This document shows, in pieces, positions 35,266 through 63,978 of a stretch of DNA of 64,000 nt; the stretch's first letter is position 1, and every line of letters begins with the position of its first letter. The position numbers and the translations under genes were made by a program. The DNA lies in contig QCIY01000010.1 in assembly GCA_003216415.1 (NCBI GenBank), forward strand, positions 666-64,665, given 5' to 3'. The notes beneath the pieces were generated by a model that saw only the letters and a program-made list of their open reading frames with translations, did no database searches and was not told the origin of the DNA. Origin of the DNA: Prochlorococcus sp. AG-402-O16. GTDB taxonomy: Bacteria > Cyanobacteriota > Cyanobacteriia > PCC-6307 > Cyanobiaceae.

Positions 35266-35428
35266 AAATTAATTTCTTTTTTAATTGACTGTTTATCTTT
35301 GGAAACTATAACCCAAGTAAATAATCAATTTCTCATAAAAAAAAAATTCTCTATTATTTGTAGCAATAATTAAGTTGTTCTTGAAAAATATTGAGTCCCT
35401 TTCGTATTTATGTATCTTTATTTCATGT

Positions 35429-35617
35429 TTATTGTATCTTTTGTGATTCCTTCAGATTTCTTATGTAATCAATAGCATCATCAATATTTTTGTGGAAATT
35501 GCACTGACCCAAATAACAACCTATAAATCTTAAGAATTTTCTCTTGCCACCACTAATTTCATATCTATGTATTGTTCCGCCATCTATAGGAGCATAAATA
35601 AGTTCTGGTAATGCCAT
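35429..35617 (-). CDS. Small hypothetical protein
   Basis: 62 aa with higher GC than flanks, protein-like composition. Confidence 0.7.
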   Translation of the reverse strand: MALPELIYAPIDGGTIHRYEISGGKRKFLRFIGCYLGQCNFHKNIDDAIDYIRNLKESQKIQ

Positions 35618-35981
35618 ATTAACTTTGTATGTATTAATTAATTAAACAATAATTCATGTTCAAATACATTTCCATAGTTCATCCATATATTTAATAATTA
35701 ATTTAATTATTTTTGGATAATTATTTATTGAACAACAAAGTATTATCTGTTATCTATGAATTATTGAGAGGGATTTTTCATTATGCCAAAAGTATTTAGG
35801 CGTTTTTTAAAAAAACTACCAAAAAAAATTCAAACTATTAAATACTCATTTAGAGAGTTTTTATCTTCCAAAATATGAAAAAGCTGTTTAGGCTAAAAAT
35901 TTTAAATTTCAATATTTTAATAAATCATATTAGGCACAGATAAATTTTAAACTATATTAAATTTGCAATTTATGAAATATT

Positions 35982-36323
35982 ATGATCAAAAGAGCTTTTA
36001 CGATATTTGTTTTAACTTTGCTGCTTCTTTTTAGTAGTCCAGTTTACTCATTAGATACTTCCTCTAAAAATCTTGAAAAGTATACAAAAAAGATTTCTAA
36101 TAAGTTCACTAGAACTTACTGCAATACTACCAAATTTGGTATTTCTTATGAAGGAGCTTTGGCATTTTCCATTGGAGAGACTAATAAAGAATTTAAAAAT
36201 AATAAACTCAATAAGTTGATAGATTATTCCCTGCTAAAAAATTCAATAGTTAATGATTTAGAAAATAATTGCATGGTTTATGATTTTGATATTAGTAGTC
36301 TAGAAAATTTAAAATTTAATTAA
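35982..36323 (+). CDS. Secreted hypothetical protein
   Basis: Signal peptide; two Cys. Confidence 0.65.
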   Translation: MIKRAFTIFVLTLLLLFSSPVYSLDTSSKNLEKYTKKISNKFTRTYCNTTKFGISYEGALAFSIGETNKEFKNNKLNKLIDYSLLKNSIVNDLENNCMVYDFDISSLENLKFN

Positions 36324-36344
36324 AAAATGTAAATTGTTAAAGTC

Positions 36345-36527
36345 TTATTTTTTACCAATCCAATCATTAGGTTTTTCCATCATCCATTCGAAAACTCCCT
36401 TAGCATCAAGGTTTTTAGATGCATAAACAAATAAAATTGGAAATATTAAAATTACAACCCCAATAACTACTAACTCTAATTTACCGATCCCTATCTCAGT
36501 TACAGTTAATGCAAAATAATTAATCAT
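36345..36527 (-). CDS. Small membrane protein
   Basis: 60 aa, one TM segment, W-containing tail. Confidence 0.6.
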   Translation of the reverse strand: MINYFALTVTEIGIGKLELVVIGVVILIFPILFVYASKNLDAKGVFEWMMEKPNDWIGKK

Positions 36528-36699
36528 TATATTTATTGAATTAAAATTTATTTCTACATAATTTATAAAAAATTTTTAGTTTTTTCACTTTTTTATAAAA
36601 AATCTTAATTGTTTATAGTGAAAGATATTTGTATAAAGTACCTATTTTATAGATGCAAAATTTTTAATAATTTGAATAATATGCTTCTATTTGATGGTT

Positions 36700-36843
36700 A
36701 TGAATTATGAAATTATTATTGTCACACCTATTTTTGCAGTAATGATTGGATTTATAGTTTTTACAATTTTAAAAAAAAGGAAGAGATCAGCTAAAAGTAT
36801 TTATAAATTAATAGATGATTTAGAAAAAAAATACATATATTAA
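36700..36843 (+). CDS. 47-aa single-TM microprotein (not in ORF track)
   Basis: MNYEIIIVTPIFAVMIGFIVFTILKKRKRSAKSIYKLIDDLEKKYIY; alternative ATG at 36694. Confidence 0.45.
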   Translation: MNYEIIIVTPIFAVMIGFIVFTILKKRKRSAKSIYKLIDDLEKKYIY

Positions 36844-36865
36844 TCTCTTTTGTAAGAAAAAAGGA

Positions 36866-37162
36866 TTAGTCAAATTCTATACCAACTTCTTCTTTTAAAT
36901 CTCTGTCCAAATCTGGAAGATGAGGTTCAACCCAATGATCTTTGTTATCAATACCAGCAGCATTTACATAATTCATAATGTGTTGATCCACTTGCTTGTA
37001 AAGATCATGCAAATTTAAATCCATACGAATATCATGTGCAATTTCAGAAACTTGTTTTTCTGTTAAACAATGATCTGGATGTAGTAAATCACAACATGGA
37101 ATTCTCTTTTCAATCAATTCATTTAAATTGATTTTTATTTCATAATCTTGATGGACAGTCAT
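36866..37162 (-). CDS. Hypothetical protein with CCxxxHPxHC motif
   Basis: 98 aa, His/Cys/Asp-rich. Confidence 0.75.
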   Translation of the reverse strand: MTVHQDYEIKINLNELIEKRIPCCDLLHPDHCLTEKQVSEIAHDIRMDLNLHDLYKQVDQHIMNYVNAAGIDNKDHWVEPHLPDLDRDLKEEVGIEFD

Positions 37163-37255
37163 TGATTTTGTATCTCTAAATTTATTCTAATTATGTTTAA
37201 GTTTTTGTATATCTTTAGTCAAGAAACAAAGTTCTTAAATACCTATGCAGTAATT

Positions 37256-37411
37256 TTAAATAAATAGATCTTCCAAGTCTTTATACAAATCATCATTCTC
37301 TTTTTGCTTTTCTACAGGGTCATGGTGATCTAATGAAAGTTCTTTTTTTGAGTTGTAGAAAAGATATCCAAGGGCTCCTAAAATTAAGGTTGTTGGTAAA
37401 ATCATTAGCAT
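37256..37411 (-). CDS. 51-aa single-TM microprotein (not in ORF track)
   Basis: MLMILPTTLILGALGYLFYNSKKELSLDHHDPVEKQKENDDLYKDLEDLFI. Confidence 0.55.
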   Translation of the reverse strand: MLMILPTTLILGALGYLFYNSKKELSLDHHDPVEKQKENDDLYKDLEDLFI

Positions 37412-37436
37412 TTAATTGACTTATAATGAATATAGT

Positions 37437-37462
37437 GCAACACTTATTACAGTCAAGTGCTG
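37437..37462. repeat. Inverted AAGTGYTG motif pair upstream of RHH gene
   Basis: CAACACTT-N9-AAGTGCTG; GCAACACTTATTA is the reverse complement of 37877-37889. Confidence 0.55.
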
Positions 37463-37480
37463 AACTTTAATTATTTTTAA

Positions 37481-37879
37481 ATGCCTACCAAGAAAAAAAG
37501 AGTTGGGTTTATTCCAAGAGAAGATGTTATGAGAATAATTGATAAGTTGAGCATAGAAAATAATTTAAGTAATTCAAAAATAATAAGTATTTTGGTAGAG
37601 GAAGCACTTGCTATAAGAGGTATATTTAATAAAAAAAATGGTAAAGTAACTCAATCATATCAACTTTCTAATGATCATTCACAATACTTATCTGATAATT
37701 CTGCTGACTTTATAGATAATGCAAAAATCTCAATTAATACTAAATTAGAAAATCATTTTACTCCTATTGAATCAACCCATTTAAATGAAGCAAATCAGGA
37801 GACTTTTGACTTACAAACTTATAAAAAGTTTTTATTATTCCTTAAATTTCAGGAAATGAATGATAAATATCATACTTAA
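37481..37879 (+). CDS. Ribbon-helix-helix (CopG/Arc-like) domain protein
   Basis: KRVGF strand, EDVMRIIDKLS helix, turn, NSKIISILVEEAL helix. Confidence 0.7.
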   Translation: MPTKKKRVGFIPREDVMRIIDKLSIENNLSNSKIISILVEEALAIRGIFNKKNGKVTQSYQLSNDHSQYLSDNSADFIDNAKISINTKLENHFTPIESTHLNEANQETFDLQTYKKFLLFLKFQEMNDKYHT

Positions 37880-37898
37880 TAAGTGTTGCTAAGTGCTG
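37877..37898. repeat. Tandem AAGTGYTG motifs downstream of RHH gene
   Basis: AAGTGTTG (37881-37888) and AAGTGCTG (37891-37898), 10-bp period. Confidence 0.55.
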
Positions 37899-38007
37899 TA
37901 CTGTGCGTTAAATTTAATTTGTATTTATGGGAGATATGCATATTAGAAATTATTTAACACCATTTCTAAAAAACTAAATTCAATTTATCTATAAAATAGT
38001 TATTCCT

Positions 38008-38322
38008 ATGAGCTCATCTCTCCCAGTTTTATCTGTAAATCTACTTCCTCCAGACAAGTTATATTGTAATTTTAGTCATTGGAGTTCCTTGTTCTCTCAA
38101 GATATGCAAATTCTATGGGATAGAGCCCATGGAGTACCTTTAGAAAAACTGCCAAAAGGTATTTCTGATATGATTTTTCCATATTTATTGCTTGCACTTT
38201 CTGACTATAAGACTACTCAAATAAATAAAATGAATGGAATAGGATTAGACAATCTATTAAGCCTTTGGTTTGATAAGTACTTATTAAATAAAAATGGTTA
38301 CTTCGAGCTAATTAAAAAATAA
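38008..38322 (+). CDS. Hypothetical protein
   Basis: 104-aa ORF in AT-rich islet, protein-like composition. Confidence 0.65.
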   Translation: MSSSLPVLSVNLLPPDKLYCNFSHWSSLFSQDMQILWDRAHGVPLEKLPKGISDMIFPYLLLALSDYKTTQINKMNGIGLDNLLSLWFDKYLLNKNGYFELIKK

Positions 38323-38671
38323 TATTTAAAATTAGTTCTTTTAATTTCAAATTTAATTGCCATGAAATTTATTGTGTCTAAAAACTTTTTAAGTTATTTT
38401 TTCGAATTGGCACATCAATAGTCTTGCTATAAATAAATTAAATGGTTTGATGATGATTTCTCTAATTTTTTTAGCAAATATGTATATTGTCGTTTTTATA
38501 ATGCTAATTAGTAGAGATTTGAAATTAAGAAAAGCATGATAAATGAAATTTAATTCAAAGACTCTGAGCTTGATATTAAATCTATTATTTTGCTTGTTAA
38601 TATTTATTATCTAAATTTTTATTCTTTATTCATTAATTTTCAAAAAATTCAAAATTAATATTCAAATTTTG

Positions 38672-38700
38672 TTGACTTTTTTTGTTAATGCGATGATAAT
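38672..38700 (+). promoter_or_regulatory. Putative sigma70-type promoter
   Basis: TTGACT-N17-GATAAT upstream of GTG 38722. Confidence 0.4.
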
Positions 38701-38721
38701 GACAAAAATAAATTTTTGATT

Positions 38722-38895
38722 GTGAATCCTCTTTCAGATACTTTTGATGATTTTGTTGATGATCTACTTTCATCAGATGTCAATTTGTTGAAAGGGGAAC
38801 TTGATTTTCTGCTTATGCAACATTTATTTAATTCAATTGATTTGAAGCTTATAAATAAAACTGAACTTGAAGATAACGAATCATTAGTTGCTTAA
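38722..38895 (+). CDS. 57-aa acidic microprotein (not in ORF track)
   Basis: GTG start; MNPLSDTFDDFVDDLLSSDVNLLKGELDFLLMQHLFNSIDLKLINKTELEDNESLVA. Confidence 0.5.
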   Translation: MNPLSDTFDDFVDDLLSSDVNLLKGELDFLLMQHLFNSIDLKLINKTELEDNESLVA

Positions 38896-39156
38896 TTTTT
38901 TCATGAAATTCTTGTATGAAAAAATTTGGGTCCCTGTTTTTGGCAATATACTATCCAAATTTATTTTTTTAATAGAAGGTAAAAAGCCAGAATCTAAGAA
39001 TAAAAAAAAAAGAGAATGATTCATTTTCGTTTTCATAAAGTGTCTTTAAATACATAATTAAAGTCAATATATTTTGATAACAACAAATGATATGCTTTTT
39101 ATTTATGAATATATGCATTGTTGAAATATAAACTAATTACTTTTTAGATAATAAAT

Positions 39157-39336
39157 ATGAACAAAATTAATACTTTAAAACCATATACCGTTCATTATCG
39201 TGATTTTCAAAATATAAGATTAGAAAATTGTTTTTATGCTTTTGATGCTTACGAAGCAAGAACACTAGCGATGGAATTTAATAAGTATATAAGTGAGCAT
39301 CCTAATAGTATTGATCTTATTAGATGTGAAAAATGA
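39157..39336 (+). CDS. 59-aa hypothetical microprotein (not in ORF track)
   Basis: MNKINTLKPYTVHYRDFQNIRLENCFYAFDAYEARTLAMEFNKYISEHPNSIDLIRCEK. Confidence 0.7.
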   Translation: MNKINTLKPYTVHYRDFQNIRLENCFYAFDAYEARTLAMEFNKYISEHPNSIDLIRCEK

Positions 39337-47975: not shown

Positions 47976-49685
47976 ATGTCCTATAAAATTGACAGAAATA
48001 CTTATGCTCAAACTTACGGCCCCACTACCGGAGATAGAGTAAGGCTTGCTGATACCGAACTATTTATTGAAGTAGAAAAGGATTTAACTACTTACGGAGA
48101 TGAAGTTAAATTCGGAGGAGGAAAAGTTATTCGAGATGGGATGGGACAGTCTCAAGTAACAAGAGGAGATGGAGCTGTAGATACCGTAATAACTAATGCT
48201 TTGATTATGGATTGGTGGGGAATAATTAAGGCCGATGTGGGTATTAAAGATGGAATGATTTTGGAAATAGGTAAGGCTGGTAATCCTGATATCCAGGATA
48301 AAGTCGATATAGTTATTGGTGCCTCAACAGAAGTAATAGCTGGAGAAGGTCATATTCTTACTGCAGGGGGAATAGATACCCACATTCACTTTATCTGTCC
48401 CCAACAAATTGAGACTGCTCTAGCCTCAGGAATCACAACTATGTTGGGAGGAGGTACAGGACCCGCAACAGGAACAAATGCTACTACCTGTACTCCTGGT
48501 TCTTTTCATATTTCTCGAATGCTTCAATCTGCAGAAGCATTCCCCATGAATTTAGGTTTTTTTGGTAAAGGAAATTCAACGAACGAAAGAAATCTTATTG
48601 ATCAAGTTGAAGCTGGTGCATGTGGATTAAAGCTTCATGAGGATTGGGGAACTACTCCTTCAACCATAAATTCATGTCTTAATGTTGCAGATAAATTTGA
48701 TGTTCAAGTATGTATTCACACGGATACTTTAAATGAGGCAGGCTTCGTTGAAGATACTATTAAGGCTATCTCAGGAAGAACAATTCATACTTTTCATACT
48801 GAAGGAGCGGGTGGAGGCCATGCGCCAGATATAATCAAAATTTGTGGCGAAAAGAATGTTCTTCCAAGTAGTACTAATCCAACAAGACCCTATACGAGAA
48901 ATACATTAGAGGAACATCTTGACATGCTAATGGTTTGTCATCATCTAGATTCCAAAATTCCAGAAGATATTGCATTCGCCGAGTCAAGAATCAGAAGAGA
49001 GACTATCGCTGCAGAAGATATCCTGCATGATGTAGGCGCCTTTTCAATTATCGCTAGTGATTCTCAAGCTATGGGAAGAGTTGGTGAAGTTATAACAAGA
49101 ACCTTTCAAACTGCTCATAAAATGAAAGTGCAAAGGGGACCTTTATATCCGGACTCAGATAGGAATGATAATTACAGAGTAAAGAGATATATTTCTAAAG
49201 TTACAATTAACCCTGCTATAGCACATGGTATTAGTAAATATGTCGGGTCTATAGAAAAAGGAAAAATTGCAGACTTAGTATTGTGGAAACCTTCCTTTTT
49301 TGCTGTAAAGCCTGAATTAGTTGTTAAAGGAGGATCTATAGTTTGGTCCCAAATGGGTGATGCAAATGCCTCAATTCCTACACCAGGACCTGTTCACGGT
49401 AGACCTATGTTTGCAAATTTCGGCCAATCCCTAATTAAGAGTTCTTTCACCTTTTTAAGTAAAAATTCAATTGATCAAAATATTCCAAACAAATTAGGAT
49501 TACAAAAGAATTGTATTGCAGTAGAAAATACAAGAAATATCAATAAATCGCACTTGAAACTTAATAGTAAACTTCCAAATATTTCTGTCGATCCTCAAAC
49601 TTACGAAGTTTTTTCCGATGGAGAACTTCTTACTTGTGAACCACTTGATGAAGTCCCAATGGCTCAAAGATACTTTTTGCTTTAG
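47976..49685 (+). CDS. ureC: Urease alpha subunit
   Basis: [34 protein letters not shown]. Confidence 0.98.
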
Positions 49686-59591: not shown

Positions 59592-60641
59592 ATGTCTTCT
59601 AATCTATCCAATCCTGAAATCCTAAATATTTTGTTAGATGGTTCAAATCTTGATGATTTAAATGCTAGATCATTAATGAAAAGATGGCTTAATGATGAAA
59701 TATCTGATGTCCAAACAGGAGCTTTTTTAGGAGCTTTAAGAGCCAAGGGTTGCACAGGTGTAGAATTATGTTCTATGGCTAAGGAACTCTTAAATGTTTG
59801 TGAATTGCCAGTAGATAGACCAAATTTATATATGGTAGATACTTGTGGAACTGGAGGCGATGGGGCTAATACATTTAATATTTCTACTGCAGTGGCTTTT
59901 GTGGCGGCATCTTGTGGTGCAAAAGTTGCAAAACATGGTAATAAAAGTGCTAGTGGAAAAGTCGGGTCTGCAGATGTTTTGTTGAATCTTGGTTTGAATT
60001 TAAATTGTTCGTTAGAAAAAGTAGTCTCTGCCGTTGATGAAATTGGAATAACTTTTTTGTTCGCACCCATTTGGCATAAATCTTTAATAAAGCTTGCTCC
60101 ATTAAGAAAGGCCCTTGGCATTAGGACTGTATTTAATCAACTTGGTCCATTGGTAAATCCTTTAAGACCCAACGCGCAGGTATTGGGTGTTGCTTCTGAG
60201 GATCTTTTGAGACCCATGGGAAGTGCATTATTAGAAATGGGGATGAATAGAGCAATAGTAGTTCATGGTTCTGGCGGTCTTGATGAAGCCTCACTTCAAG
60301 GTGAAAATAAATTAGTGTTTGTTGAAAATGGTGAGTTACGATTTTCAAAAATAAATATCTCGGATTTTAACTATGAAAATATTTCAAACGAAAATCTTGT
60401 AGTTTCTAATGAAGATTCTAACGAAGAAATATTAAAGTCTGTTTTAAATGGTTCAGGACAAAAATCTCATAATTATGTAGTTGCTTTGAATACTGCATTA
60501 GTTCTCTGGGTAGCAGGAATTGAGGATGATTTAAAAGAAGGCTTTAATAAAGCATTATTTTCAATAAATCAGGGAAACTCTTGGAAAAAATTTTTACTTT
60601 TAAAAAATTATTTATCTTCAGATGAATTAATTACAAATTAA
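59592..60641 (+). CDS. trpD: Anthranilate phosphoribosyltransferase
   Basis: [34 protein letters not shown]. Confidence 0.96.
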
Positions 60642-61780
60642 TGATTAATCAATATAAGAAAAATGCAAAATTAGTTTTAAGTAATGGAATTGTTTTCCCG
60701 GGATTTTCTTTTGGAGCCTCGGGGACTGCTGTTGGCGAAATAGTTTTTAATACAGGAATGACCGGATATCAGGAAGTTATTACTGATCCGAGTTATTATG
60801 GACAAATATTAACATTCACTTATCCAGAAATTGGAAATACAGGTATTAATCTTGAAGATTCAGAATCTAATATTAGTGTTAAAGGAATAGTTGTTAGAAA
60901 TTATTCATCAACTAATAGTAATTGGAGATGTAAAAAAAATTTTAATCAATGGTTACTTGAAAAAAATATAATTGGCCTTTATGGGATTGATACAAGAGCA
61001 CTTGTTAAAATCTTAAGATCTAATGGCTCAATGAATGGTGTTCTTACATCTGATGATAAAACTATAGAAAGTTGTTTAAAAATAATATCTCAAACTCCAA
61101 AAATGGAAGGATTAAATTTATCAAAAGATGTTTCCACAAACCATAAATATTTATGGCAAAGCTTTTCTGAAACAAGTTTTGATGTTAGAAAAAAATATTC
61201 AGATAAACCTAAAAAATTAAAAATTGTAGCAATTGATTTTGGAATAAAAAAATCAATTTTAAATAGATTAGTCTCCCATGGTTGTGAAATTTTAGTCTTA
61301 CCTTCTCGATCTACTTTAAATGATGTTCTGAATAATAAGCCTGATGGAATATTCTTCTCAAATGGTCCAGGGGACCCTTCTTCGGTTAAGGAAGGGATAA
61401 ATTTAGCTAGATCACTTATTGATCATGGTGAAATACCTATGTTTGGAATTTGCCTTGGCCATCAAATATTTGGATTAGCCTTGGGAGGTTCAACTTATAA
61501 ACTACCTTTTGGACATCGAGGTCTTAATCATCCTTGTGGAAAGAATAATCAAATTGAGATAACAAGTCAGAATCATGGTTTCGCTATTGACCCTAATTCT
61601 CTCCCAAAGGAGATAGTCAAAATAACCCACTACAATCTTAATGATAATACTGTCGCAGGATTGGAAGTTCTTGATAAGCCAATATTTAGTGTTCAATATC
61701 ATCCAGAAGCAGGACCTGGTCCACATGATTCTGATTATTTATTTAATAAATTTGTTTCTCTAATGTTAGAAAGATGTTGA
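60641..61780 (+). CDS. carA: Carbamoyl-phosphate synthase small subunit
   Basis: GEIVFNTGMTGYQE, SNGPGDP, GICLGHQ, QYHPEA. Confidence 0.97.
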   Translation: MINQYKKNAKLVLSNGIVFPGFSFGASGTAVGEIVFNTGMTGYQEVITDPSYYGQILTFTYPEIGNTGINLEDSESNISVKGIVVRNYSSTNSNWRCKKNFNQWLLEKNIIGLYGIDTRALVKILRSNGSMNGVLTSDDKTIESCLKIISQTPKMEGLNLSKDVSTNHKYLWQSFSETSFDVRKKYSDKPKKLKIVAIDFGIKKSILNRLVSHGCEILVLPSRSTLNDVLNNKPDGIFFSNGPGDPSSVKEGINLARSLIDHGEIPMFGICLGHQIFGLALGGSTYKLPFGHRGLNHPCGKNNQIEITSQNHGFAIDPNSLPKEIVKITHYNLNDNTVAGLEVLDKPIFSVQYHPEAGPGPHDSDYLFNKFVSLMLERC

Positions 61781-61830
61781 CATATTGCTTTCTTTTGATT
61801 TGATAATTACATTTGATACATAAATTTTTT

Positions 61831-61836
61831 GGAGGT
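61831..61836 (+). promoter_or_regulatory. Shine-Dalgarno sequence of STAS gene
   Basis: GGAGGT, 5 nt before ATC 61842 and 8 nt before ATA 61845. Confidence 0.7.
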
Positions 61837-61844
61837 ACTAAATC

Positions 61845-62207
61845 ATAGAAGATTTCCAGAAGTTAACGGTTTCTTTAAGAGGAAACATTGATTTTAAAAC
61901 AAACATTATTGTTTTTACTTTTAAAGGCCAACTTGATGCCTTCTCAGAAAAACAATTTAAGACTTTTGTTTCTAATAATCTAAAAAATGAGCATCCATTT
62001 GTTATTGATCTAACAAAAATTGATTTTCTAGATTCTTCGGGTCTTGGAGCTCTTGTTCAAACTGCTAAAGAATGTAAAAAGTTAAAGTTAGGTTTTTCAG
62101 TTGTTGGTAATTCGAGAGTTGCTCAATCAATTAAACTTGTGCGGCTGGGAGATTTTCTTAATTTAAAGTCTAATCTTGAAGAAGCATTAAATTATTTAAA
62201 AAATTGA
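61845..62207 (+). CDS. STAS-domain anti-sigma factor antagonist with non-ATG start (not in ORF track)
   Basis: 120-codon frame IEDFQKLTVSLRG...GQLDAFSE...VIDLTKIDFLDSSGLGALV...; in-frame TAA at 61839-61841; no ATG/GTG/TTG before codon 99. Confidence 0.85.
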   Translation: MEDFQKLTVSLRGNIDFKTNIIVFTFKGQLDAFSEKQFKTFVSNNLKNEHPFVIDLTKIDFLDSSGLGALVQTAKECKKLKLGFSVVGNSRVAQSIKLVRLGDFLNLKSNLEEALNYLKN

Positions 62208-62602
62208 ATTATTGGATTCAAAACTTGGTTCCATATGGCTCTCCTGAAGAAATAGGTGTTATACAACTTGCATGGCTTGGGGATTCGGTTTGGGAACTTC
62301 ATCAAAGACTTAGACATGTTCATTTCCCTTTGAAATCAAAAGAACTCCATTTATCAGTAGTGAACGAAGTAAAAGCAAAATCTCAATCAAAATCTTTATA
62401 TCAAATTGAACATTTATTAAATGAAAACGAAATGGACTTAATTAGACGTGCTAGAAATAAAACAAAGAGATATCCAAAATCTTCAGATCCTACTATATAC
62501 TCCAGAGCTACTGGTTTTGAAACTCTGATAGGTTGGCTATTTCTTAAAGATCCCCAAAGATTATCAATTCTTTTTGATTATCTTGAGAGTAAAATGAAAT
62601 AA
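62204..62602 (+). CDS. mrnC: Mini-ribonuclease III
   Basis: LAWLGDSVWE, V.AKSQ, RRARN, Y..ATGFETLIGWL; TTG start overlaps the STAS stop. Confidence 0.88.
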   Translation: MNYWIQNLVPYGSPEEIGVIQLAWLGDSVWELHQRLRHVHFPLKSKELHLSVVNEVKAKSQSKSLYQIEHLLNENEMDLIRRARNKTKRYPKSSDPTIYSRATGFETLIGWLFLKDPQRLSILFDYLESKMK

Positions 62603-62606
62603 TCTC

Positions 62607-63614
62607 ATGAAAAAGTCAACTAAAAATAATTTTTCCGAGAAAAATAGTAAACAAAACAAAAGAAATTCAAATTCTCAATTTTACCCAAATCATATTAACT
62701 CTTCAAAAAAGAATAATAGATCTCAGATTAATTCTACTAAAAATAATAATTATAAAAATTTAAATAAAAATGATGAAAACAATACTTTTTCATCTTTAAA
62801 ACGAAGAAAGCCTATATCTAAATCTAATGGAGAATTTTCTAAAAAAAATTCTGATGTGCATCAAGAGTTTATTAATAAGAAAAATTTTGATGATTGGATA
62901 TGGGGTAAACATTCGGTTTATGAGGCTCTTATTAGTGAAAGAGCAATTAATAGGATTTGGTGTACTTCGGAAATCTTTTCATCAGAAAAATTCTATATTT
63001 TGCTTAAGGACTTTAAATCAAAAGGAGTTCTTATTGAAGAAGTTTCTTGGAACAGGCTTTCTCAATTGACTTATGGTGCTTCACATCAAGGAGTCGCATT
63101 GCAGTTAGCCTGTTCTAAAGCAATATCCCTAGAAAAATTAATCGATTTTTCTAAAAATAACTGTGCAAATCCTATAATACTTGCATTAGATGGTATAACT
63201 GACCCCCATAATGTTGGTGCGATTATAAGATCAGCGGAAGCATTTGATTGTAAGGGCATCATCATTCCTCAAAGAAGATCTGCTGGATTGACGGGAACAG
63301 TCGCCAAGGTAGCAGCAGGTGCCTTAGAACACCTGCAAGTAAGTAGAGTTGTTAACTTGAATAGAGCACTTGATGAGCTTAAGAAAAATGGTTTTCTTGT
63401 CGTTGGCTTATCTGGAGATGGTCAATTATCTATCTCAAATTTCCTAGAAAAATCGCCCTTGGTAGTTATAGTCGGCTCTGAAGATAAAGGTATTTCTTTG
63501 CTTACTCAAAAAAAATGTGATTTTCTATTAAGAATTCCTCTAAAAGGTAAAACTTCAAGTTTAAATGCTTCTGTGGCGGCCGCCATATCACTATTTCACT
63601 TGACGTGTAAATAA
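62607..63614 (+). CDS. rlmB: 23S rRNA (Gm2251) 2'-O-methyltransferase, TrmH/SpoU family
   Basis: WGKHSV, HQGV, LDGITDPHNVGAIIRSA, GSEDKGI, SLNASVA. Confidence 0.9.
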   Translation: MKKSTKNNFSEKNSKQNKRNSNSQFYPNHINSSKKNNRSQINSTKNNNYKNLNKNDENNTFSSLKRRKPISKSNGEFSKKNSDVHQEFINKKNFDDWIWGKHSVYEALISERAINRIWCTSEIFSSEKFYILLKDFKSKGVLIEEVSWNRLSQLTYGASHQGVALQLACSKAISLEKLIDFSKNNCANPIILALDGITDPHNVGAIIRSAEAFDCKGIIIPQRRSAGLTGTVAKVAAGALEHLQVSRVVNLNRALDELKKNGFLVVGLSGDGQLSISNFLEKSPLVVIVGSEDKGISLLTQKKCDFLLRIPLKGKTSSLNASVAAAISLFHLTCK

Positions 63615-63759: not shown

Positions 63760-63978
63760 TTGATTAGAAACTTTGGAAACAAACTCGGATTAGCCTGGTG
63801 GGCTAAAATTGAGACGGATCAACCTAGTGCTACTTACTGGTTCGGCCCATTTATTACTAAACGTAGTTTAAAAGAAAATATGTCTTCTTTTATTGAAGAT
63901 CTTTCCGATGAAGGATCAAAAAATATTAAACATAGTCTAATTCGCTGCAACAAAGAAGAACCACTAACTGTCGGATGA
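63760..63978 (+). CDS. DUF1816-type small protein
   Basis: GLAWWAKIET..P...YWFGPF, DLSDEG, RC...EPLT. Confidence 0.78.
   Translation: MIRNFGNKLGLAWWAKIETDQPSATYWFGPFITKRSLKENMSSFIEDLSDEGSKNIKHSLIRCNKEEPLTVG

Follow-up and report, generated by a model that had tools for sequence, protein, structure and literature searches.

A gene for a STAS-domain protein in a 64,000-nucleotide stretch of Prochlorococcus sp. AG-402-O16 DNA (contig QCIY01000010.1; the whole stretch is referred to here as the window) is most probably translated from ATA at position 61845, as judged by homology, and not from the adjacent ATC at 61842. In this study, we found that the non-AUG start is not a Prochlorococcus oddity: a codon of the form ATH (ATT, ATA or ATC) was kept at this position in every cyanobacterial order sampled. 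We consider it probable that the gene, an orthologue of ssr1600 of Synechocystis with a putative promoter of its own and a perfect GGAGG, has a weak ATA start kept by selection, and that the downstream mini-III gene is translationally coupled to it in marine picocyanobacteria. Judged from sequence comparison, the family is a new and deeply conserved addition to the few bacterial genes that can start only at AUH, and one that was already implicit in RefSeq models.

The window has a G+C content of 31% and its source belongs to high-light clade II (HLII) of Prochlorococcus. The features of the STAS gene and its leader are as follows.

61808..61813, + strand: -10-like hexamer TACATT, putative promoter of the STAS operon, called from conservation only
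61831..61836, + strand: Shine-Dalgarno (SD) sequence GGAGGT; GGAGG in 81/81 HLII loci
61839..61841, + strand: in-frame stop TAA that shuts the frame upstream, read from the sequence; TAA or TAG here, directly before the ATC-ATA pair, in 65/81 HLII loci
61842..61844, + strand: ATC, second near-cognate codon and possible alternative start, HLII clade only
61845..61847, + strand: ATA, most probable start codon, invariant in 81/81 HLII loci
61845..62207, + strand: gene for a STAS anti-sigma-factor antagonist, 120 residues plus stop, from Pfam and NCBIfam matches and synteny
62034..62039, + strand: Ser64/Ser65 codons of DSSGLG, predicted phospho-switch, from the alignment to Ssr1600 S59/S60

From ATA, the frame is open for 120 codons to the TGA at 62205-62207 and encodes no Met. 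Its first in-frame ATG, GTG or TTG is GTG 62139 at codon 99, and TAA 61839-61841 lies upstream. A sequence-only reading of the same DNA had argued from these positions that a non-canonical start was forced, and this was borne out. Its description of an intact 120-codon STAS frame with Ser64 in DSSGLG also held, both on reading the sequence and by the Pfam match given below, as did its perfect GGAGGT before the start. GGAGG is separated from ATC by 6 nt and from ATA by 9 nt in the window. The same reading had left the start between these two codons; both are present, and homology favours ATA 61845.

The window protein matched Pfam STAS (PF01740) with 65.1 bits against a cut-off of 22.6, and the anti-sigma factor antagonist family TIGR00377 with 59.8 bits against a cut-off of 53.45. 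Its nearest solved structures were TM1442 and SpoIIAA, and its closest relatives were all from Prochlorococcus, with protein identities of 88-94%. An alignment with Ssr1600 of Synechocystis PCC 6803 gave 48% identity over 110 residues (E 6e-34). As numbered from ATA, D63-S64-S65-G66 (Ser64 at 62034-62036) aligned with D58-S59-S60 of Ssr1600, with DSAG of TM1442 and with the phospho-serine region of SpoIIAA. The residues named for Ssr1600 in PMC12329169 (L24, D25, F27, S28, R33, G43, D58, S59, S60, L62, G63, V66, Q67, and K70) all had counterparts in P0134, a Nostocales orthologue, at a constant offset of 6 when its residues are counted from the conserved Ile. The ssr1600 peptides in a proteogenomic supplement also fit the family consensus. 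Identity, residue offset and synteny thus mark the window gene as the orthologue of Synechocystis Ssr1600.

The phosphoprotein Ssr1600 antagonizes the anti-sigma kinase Slr1861, which phosphorylates it at S59/S60 (Kurkela et al., PMC12329169). The Ssr1600/Slr1861 pair controls the assembly of the RNA polymerase-SigC holoenzyme, which limits growth; overexpression of Ssr1600 slows growth in high CO2, and its near-loss rescues an rpoZ deletion mutant (PMC12329169). A second Ssr1600 kinase, PmgA, has been reported, and the antagonist gene of Leptolyngbya boryana (16410) adjoins carA and is mutated in dark-adapted variants (PMC12344097).

The start region was then compared across cyanobacteria. 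The loci of 80 other HLII genomes were collected by tblastn, independently of gene calls, and gave 81 loci together with the window. HLII genomes are kin to each other, so that 81 loci do not amount to 81 independent observations, a point addressed by the cross-order sample. Further sets covered low-light Prochlorococcus, marine and freshwater Synechococcus, and Cyanobium; Nostocales; and a mixed set obtained with the Synechocystis protein as query, which included Synechocystis, Snowella, Spirulina, Chroococcus, Aphanothece, Microcoleus, Phormidesmis, Leptolyngbya, and Thermosynechococcaceae. The counts across cyanobacteria refer to 304 non-duplicate, tblastn-derived loci; Gloeobacter and the non-photosynthetic sister groups were left out.

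Among the HLII loci, the codon at 61845 was ATA in all 81. The codon at 61842 was ATC in 75 and AAC, ACC or GTC in the other 6. No ATG, GTG or TTG occurred between the upstream stop and ATA in 70 of the 81. Over the 304 loci, the aligned codon was ATT in 141, ATA in 103, and ATC in 57 (ATH in 301/304), and the remaining 3 had an indel that shifted the alignment register. ATG, GTG or TTG was found at this codon in 0/304 cyanobacterial loci. The sequence-only reading had named an ATG in orthologues as the observation that would speak against it, and none was seen in orthologues or in ocean metagenomes.

The Ile codon was located exactly six codons before the invariant LTVSLRG strand in all sampled groups. 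Its third base tracked genome composition, being C in GC-rich Synechococcus, A in Prochlorococcus and T elsewhere, and was never G. Outside HLII, the codon preceding ATH was unconserved and usually not near-cognate (CCC, GCC, GTT, TCT, CTT, and others), which leaves ATH as the sole candidate start common to all genomes. In 187 of the 304 loci, the interval from the upstream in-frame stop to ATH contained no canonical start. Many genomes read TAGGAGGnnnnnATT, in which the stop codon is embedded in the SD sequence (TAG in TAGGAGG). These results show that no other start is possible in most genomes. The arrangement seen in the window recurred in all 81 HLII loci and, in its main features, in the 304 cyanobacterial loci, which goes far beyond chance.

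We also observed two local variations of the start region. An HLII subclade (L017, L024) has a spacer between GGAGG and ATA that is one base shorter (8 nt), with AAC in place of ATC and the TTG of TTGGAGG in frame. This spacer puts gene callers on a 125-residue model (MEELNIEDFQ...), and many metagenome proteins are of 125 residues, for example P0001. Three marine Synechococcus loci (L104, L108, L119) carry a tandem in-frame ATG ATG 13-14 codons before ATC, approximately 9 nt after a -10-like hexamer. The tandem ATG ATG could be a near-leaderless alternative start in that marine Synechococcus subgroup only.

To locate the beginning of the coding sequence, changes were counted codon by codon. 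From the second or third codon past ATH, nearly all changes were synonymous. Nostocales, for example, had 37/37 synonymous changes at Glu+2 and 44/44 at Leu+4, and HLII had 15/15 at Phe+3. Upstream of ATH, changes were non-synonymous, stops were present, and GAGGAGG was fixed at the nucleotide level. In HLII, the length of the spacer just upstream of ATA differed (8, 9 or 10 nt), which breaks the frame. These results show that the coding boundary lies at or just after the ATH codon and that it is conserved across the orders sampled.

The gene itself is under strong purifying selection, with a median ratio of non-synonymous to synonymous substitution rates (dN/dS) of 0.077 at dS 0.44 in the HLII comparison, and the frame was intact in all loci examined. 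In contigs from four ocean metagenomes, where word depths were in the thousands, variants occurred at 61822, 61824, 61836, 61838, 61841, and 61859; none fell in GGAGG or ATCATA at the 2% level. Ocean metatranscriptome contigs spanned the STAS gene and mini-III. Some of these transcripts ran on from carA, and the contigs gave no clean 5' end for a transcription start. A decaying pseudogene, or an ATG lost to sequencing or assembly error, might be suspected because standard gene callers find no gene in the region and because the ATC- and ATA-started window proteins are both absent from a collection of 15 billion proteins. However, the constraint on the intact frame, the same ATA in 81 genomes and in deep metagenome contigs, and transcription in the ocean exclude sequencing error, private mutation and pseudogene, and we give this explanation practically no chance.

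The leader was also conserved. GGAGG stood 8-10 nt before ATA in every HLII locus and 5 nt upstream of ATH in most non-picocyanobacteria, and a G-rich core stood 8-9 nt upstream in picocyanobacteria. In the window, 51 of the 58 long open reading frames (ORFs) had no SD sequence, and none of the 58 had GGAGG in a comparable position. A TAYAYT hexamer preceded the start codon, at a distance of 30-33 nt in picocyanobacteria and Nostocales and of somewhat more in others. Its form was TACATT in the window, TACACT in other picocyanobacteria, and TATACT in Nostocales. We infer that this -10-like hexamer is the promoter of the STAS operon, which would place the transcription start near 61820 and give a 5' untranslated region of about 25 nt. 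With such a leader, most upstream in-frame TTGs would fall outside the transcript. A promoter and terminator scan gave nothing above shuffle background. The window leader folded no better than its shuffles (z = -0.64), RNAalifold on 20 picocyanobacterial leaders gave no consensus pair, and Rfam had no riboswitch or other match around the STAS start.

We considered other positions for the start. In HLII, ATC 61842 might be the working start, either as the sole site or in parallel with ATA, and the product would then have 121 residues, as several RefSeq models do. Its distance of 6 nt from GGAGG is nearer to the classical optimum than the 9 nt of ATA, its presence in most HLII loci is accompanied by the lack of any metagenome variant, and the annotation pipeline PGAP chose it for WP_072165446.1. 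On the other hand, ATC is replaced in 6 of the 81 HLII loci while ATA is invariant, the homologous codon in all other clades is not near-cognate and the conserved ATH aligns with ATA, and PGAP takes ATA in other strains (WP_342665652.1). We regard ATC as an unlikely start. A canonical start further upstream, with an extended N-terminus, is very improbable. It would be either TTG 61829, in TTGGAGG, reached by frameshift, or one of the in-frame TTGs that some genomes have 15-20 codons up. Models of 125, 135 and 140 residues exist where the frame happens to be open, and the TTG of TTGGAGG is in frame in the subclade with the 8-nt spacer. In the window, however, TTG 61829 is out of frame and has no SD sequence of its own, and the STAS frame is blocked by TAA 61839; the extensions are unconserved in sequence, length and frame, and the TTGs lie at or before the -10 hexamer, outside the predicted transcript. 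A frameshift from TTG 61829 and an N-terminal extension were thus both rejected, as nothing upstream is conserved.

Public annotation of the family was inconsistent. RefSeq/PGAP starts orthologues at ATC, ATA or ATT. Prochlorococcus models begin with MIEDFQ (ATC; WP_072165446.1) or MEDFQ (ATA; WP_342665652.1), and other models begin with MAEPLNL (ATT, 122 residues) in Synechocystis PCC 6803, MIAEPLNL (the first of two ATTs) in Nostoc, and MTVSLRG (TTG at Leu7) elsewhere. Metagenome callers gave extensions of 125-140 residues or truncations. Among 50%-identity representatives, many models were cut to an internal Met and others carried unconserved extra N-terminal residues. The truncated and extended models arise because callers find no legal start. 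The sequence-only reading had called the gene hidden; it is missed by callers limited to ATG, GTG and TTG, and is hidden only to these, whereas its orthologues are already annotated by RefSeq/PGAP.

The published Ssr1600 numbering begins at the Leu of LTVSLRG, as the residue offset of 6 indicates. It therefore starts at the Leu7 TTG of the PCC 6803 gene and covers 116 residues, without six conserved ones. This annotated TTG is at NC_000911.1:2024126, and the ATT precedes it by 18 nt. A non-AUG start of ssr1600 is absent from PMC12329169 and from a preprint on ribosome profiling and proteogenomics in Synechocystis, in which we found no start-site coordinates for ssr1600. A full-text literature search found no paper that describes or discusses a non-AUG start of the Ssr1600 family.

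How the gene might be expressed can be outlined as follows. Transcription would begin at its own promoter just past carA and yield a short leader. GGAGG would bring the 30S subunit to the weak ATA 61845 (in HLII possibly also to ATC 61842, which is specific to that clade), and initiator tRNA would place Met at the N-terminus despite ATA. AUA, AUC and AUU initiate at approximately 1-2% of AUG in E. coli (bioRxiv 10.1101/063800). Selection probably prevents the start from becoming strong, with the unusually strong SD sequence as compensation: a single mutation would create ATG without altering the protein, but none of about 300 genomes has it. The simplest purpose would be a low and tightly set dose of antagonist relative to its kinases, an excess being harmful in Synechocystis. 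In marine picocyanobacteria, ribosomes ending at the STAS TGA would re-initiate on the overlapping SD-less TTG of mini-III, so that synthesis of mini-III, and probably also of rlmB 4 nt further on, would be tied to the throttled STAS translation.

Several observations weigh against this outline. An essential internal Ile would likewise never become ATG, and the argument of selection against ATG therefore rests on ATH being the start. The supplements of the Synechocystis riboproteogenomics preprint contain no N-terminal Ssr1600 peptide, and the ends of assembled Synechocystis RNA contigs do not separate ATT from TTG. Ssr1600 is readily seen by mass spectrometry (11 peptides, 92% coverage); the start is thus weak only in a relative sense, and expression is not extremely low. 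A simple sigma-70 promoter scan missed the conserved hexamer, and the promoter call comes from conservation only. Since transcripts reading through from carA exist, occasional use of upstream in-frame TTGs is conceivable in the minority of genomes that have them. Coupling to mini-III is impossible outside picocyanobacteria, where the genes are 34-1370 nt apart. No partner kinase was found in the scanned part of the window either. The sequence-only reading had stated that no cognate anti-sigma kinase is present in the window; a Pfam scan of 30 of the 61 other long ORFs, which covers the claim only in part, detected no SpoIIAB/RsbW-type kinase and no PP2C phosphatase domain.

The weak start might in addition act as a sensor, as the sequence-only reading had proposed. 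When initiation factor 3 (IF3) is scarce relative to 30S subunits, output would rise and feed the SigC switch and, by coupling, 23S rRNA maturation. Strict retention of ATH with a strong SD sequence in every order sampled resembles infC, whose AUU start is required for its regulation. Many other routes could lead to a merely low set-point, which should then drift, and mini-III and rlmB stay linked to the gene throughout the sampled orders. Against this, only one ATT start is annotated in Synechocystis and it is not that of infC, so that an infC-type AUU loop is not apparent in this organism. Nor does any conserved RNA structure hint at further control, and coupling is confined to picocyanobacteria. 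By analogy with infC, we hold the sensor to be possible but not probable. Somewhat more doubtful is the wider proposal that an AUH-gated SigC antagonist reports the balance of initiation factors and free subunits, with the picocyanobacterial gate setting the supply of two 23S rRNA maturation enzymes through termination-reinitiation.

The genes next to the STAS gene in the window are as follows.

60641..61780, + strand: carA, carbamoyl-phosphate synthase small subunit, TIGR01368 at 487 bits; conserved upstream neighbour
62204..62207, + strand: TTGA, STAS stop TGA overlapping the mini-III start TTG, in 78/78 HLII loci
62204..62602, + strand: mini-III, RNase III catalytic domain without double-stranded-RNA-binding domain, 132 residues, PF00636 at 77 bits
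62607..63614, + strand: rlmB, 23S rRNA Gm2251 2'-O-methyltransferase, TIGR00186 at 236.3 bits, with SpoU_methylase and SpoU_sub_bind
63760..63978, + strand: DUF1816 gene, last member of the syntenic block, PF08846 at 84.7 bits

In a sample of 320 loci, the order carA, STAS, mini-III, rlmB (and DUF1816) held for nearly all whose flanks were long enough, in a range extending from Prochlorococcus to Synechocystis and Nostoc. The window, Synechocystis salina and most of the 320 loci have carA upstream of STAS and mini-III, rlmB and DUF1816 downstream. The best PDB matches of mini-III were the B. subtilis Mini-ribonuclease 3 structures 4OUN and 6TNN (about E 1e-10), and PF00636 was the only domain in its 132 residues. 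The RlmB score exceeded the TIGR00186 cut-off of 160.15, and rlmB starts four bases past the mini-III stop. RlmB also has a low-complexity N-terminal extension of approximately 95 residues (62607-62890), K/N/S-rich in the window and P/K/R-rich in Synechocystis (L241 3368-3770), which falls outside the E. coli-type RlmB model. A DUF1816 gene follows rlmB in Synechocystis salina (L241 4591-4914) and many other loci as well.

The overlap of STAS with mini-III followed by rlmB, pointed out in the sequence-only reading, was confirmed. TTGA was present in all 78 HLII loci and also in those loci of low-light Prochlorococcus and marine Synechococcus that were examined. The stretch of 25 nt ahead of TTG 62204, AAGAAGCATTAAATTATTTAAAAAA, contains no GGAG, GAGG or AGGA. 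Because mini-III has no SD sequence of its own and the TTGA overlap is conserved, termination-reinitiation coupling from STAS to mini-III is likely in picocyanobacteria, as far as can be read from the DNA. An overlap is also implied in Cyanobium-type genomes, whose mini-III frame has its first canonical start 11-26 nt ahead of the STAS stop. The junction in Cyanobium and freshwater Synechococcus loci (L107-L160) reads CCTGA instead of CTTGA, and a CTG start is conceivable there.

Alternatively, mini-III might be translated independently, for example from TTG 62225, with the TTGA overlap reflecting genome compaction without functional coupling. This second in-frame TTG is present in the window and in 62 of 78 HLII loci, genes without an SD sequence predominate in Prochlorococcus (51 of the 58 long ORFs in the window), so that SD-independent initiation is common, and other cyanobacteria start mini-III on its own, well downstream of STAS. 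We find this rather unlikely, as the overlapping TTG is in all 78 HLII loci as well as in the low-light Prochlorococcus and marine Synechococcus loci, while the second TTG is missing in 16 HLII loci and the residues right after the first TTG (x-x-W-I) are conserved.

Coupling from STAS to mini-III is thus favoured in picocyanobacteria, and to this extent the earlier claim was supported. Elsewhere, the gap between the genes is 347-1370 nt in Nostocales and 34-1286 nt in the mixed set, and in Synechocystis salina mini-III begins with ATG 72 nt downstream. As ATH is equally conserved without the overlap, coupling to the rRNA enzymes is not the reason for the weak start. In Synechocystis RNA-seq contigs (L241 2729-3072), depth from the 3' end of ssr1600 into early mini-III was about ten times that of the flanks. 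Possible sources of the peak are a stable fragment left by processing, an internal promoter, and an antisense RNA.

Other observations were made elsewhere in the window. Just ahead of the STAS operon, base 60641 belongs both to the trpD stop and to the carA ATG (60639-60643), a one-base stop/start overlap. An Rfam 5_ureB_sRNA match of 94 bits was located at 48132-48417 on the minus strand, antisense within the urease alpha-subunit gene (47976-49685, plus strand); it may merely reflect conserved urease coding sequence and not a Prochlorococcus sRNA. The interval of approximately 35300-39300 contains only short ORFs (113, 132 and 104 residues) without Pfam matches, the rest of the window being densely coding, and may be a variable island.

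Bacteria very rarely have conserved non-AUG starts, and the STAS gene would be the third case after two confirmed in E. coli. It offers a natural system of about 300 cyanobacterial genomes, from Nostoc to Prochlorococcus, in which to ask why a cell keeps a weak start codon. Growth and acclimation to high CO2 and high light are regulated by the Ssr1600 cascade, which was described only recently. Published Ssr1600 constructs, residue numbers and antibodies are built on the 116-residue model, and a native translational throttle would have been overlooked. Annotation in public databases is mixed, with starts at ATC, ATA, the first or second ATT, or the Leu7 TTG, with upstream extensions, or with no gene at all; Prodigal-type callers miss the gene or misplace its start in Prochlorococcus. 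In marine picocyanobacteria, the overlap predicts that levels of mini-III, and probably of RlmB, are slaved to the STAS start gate. The wider sensor proposal, if true, would mean that translational capacity, ribosome biogenesis and the choice of sigma factor have been linked since ancient times.

Among known systems, infC of E. coli, which encodes IF3, also has a near-cognate AUH start that is conserved in orthologues. IF3 discriminates against non-AUG starts, and the AUU start of infC is poorly recognized for that reason. In infC, however, the product is the discriminator itself and closes an autoregulatory loop, whereas the STAS product is a signalling protein, and any IF3 dependence of the STAS gene would therefore be an input and not a loop. 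infC and pcnB are the only confirmed cases of a non-AUG (AUU) start in E. coli (bioRxiv 10.1101/063800). In pcnB, which encodes poly(A) polymerase I, a weak AUU start limits a protein that is harmful in excess, and this is the simplest analogy to dose-sensitive Ssr1600; the protein family is unrelated, and the STAS case spans about 300 genomes. Non-AUG starts in chloroplasts (PMC9845219) are similar in that a cyanobacteria-derived translation system keeps them as a regulatory layer, but other genes are involved. No chloroplast counterpart of the STAS gene was found, although no search was aimed at one.

Ssr1600 of PCC 6803 shares with the window protein 48% identity, the DSSG phospho-serines, the interface residues, the neighbourhood, and an ATH start behind GGAGG. 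It differs in that the published protein is numbered from the Leu7 TTG (116 residues) with no mention of ATT, which the 122-residue NCBI model uses, and in that mini-III of Synechocystis lies 72 nt downstream with its own ATG, whereas the Prochlorococcus genes overlap. SpoIIAA and RsbV of Bacillus and TM1442 of Thermotoga have the same STAS fold and phospho-serine switch. Their operons hold the kinase and the sigma factor, whereas the Ssr1600-family gene sits with rRNA maturation genes, has a non-AUG start, and has no adjacent kinase gene in the loci examined. Coupling through overlapping stops and starts (AUGA, UGAUG, UUGA) has been reviewed (PMC12548453). The STAS-mini-III pair resembles such pairs in its four-base stop/start overlap and SD-less downstream gene; unlike in those pairs, its upstream cistron itself appears to have a very weak start, by which the whole unit would be throttled.

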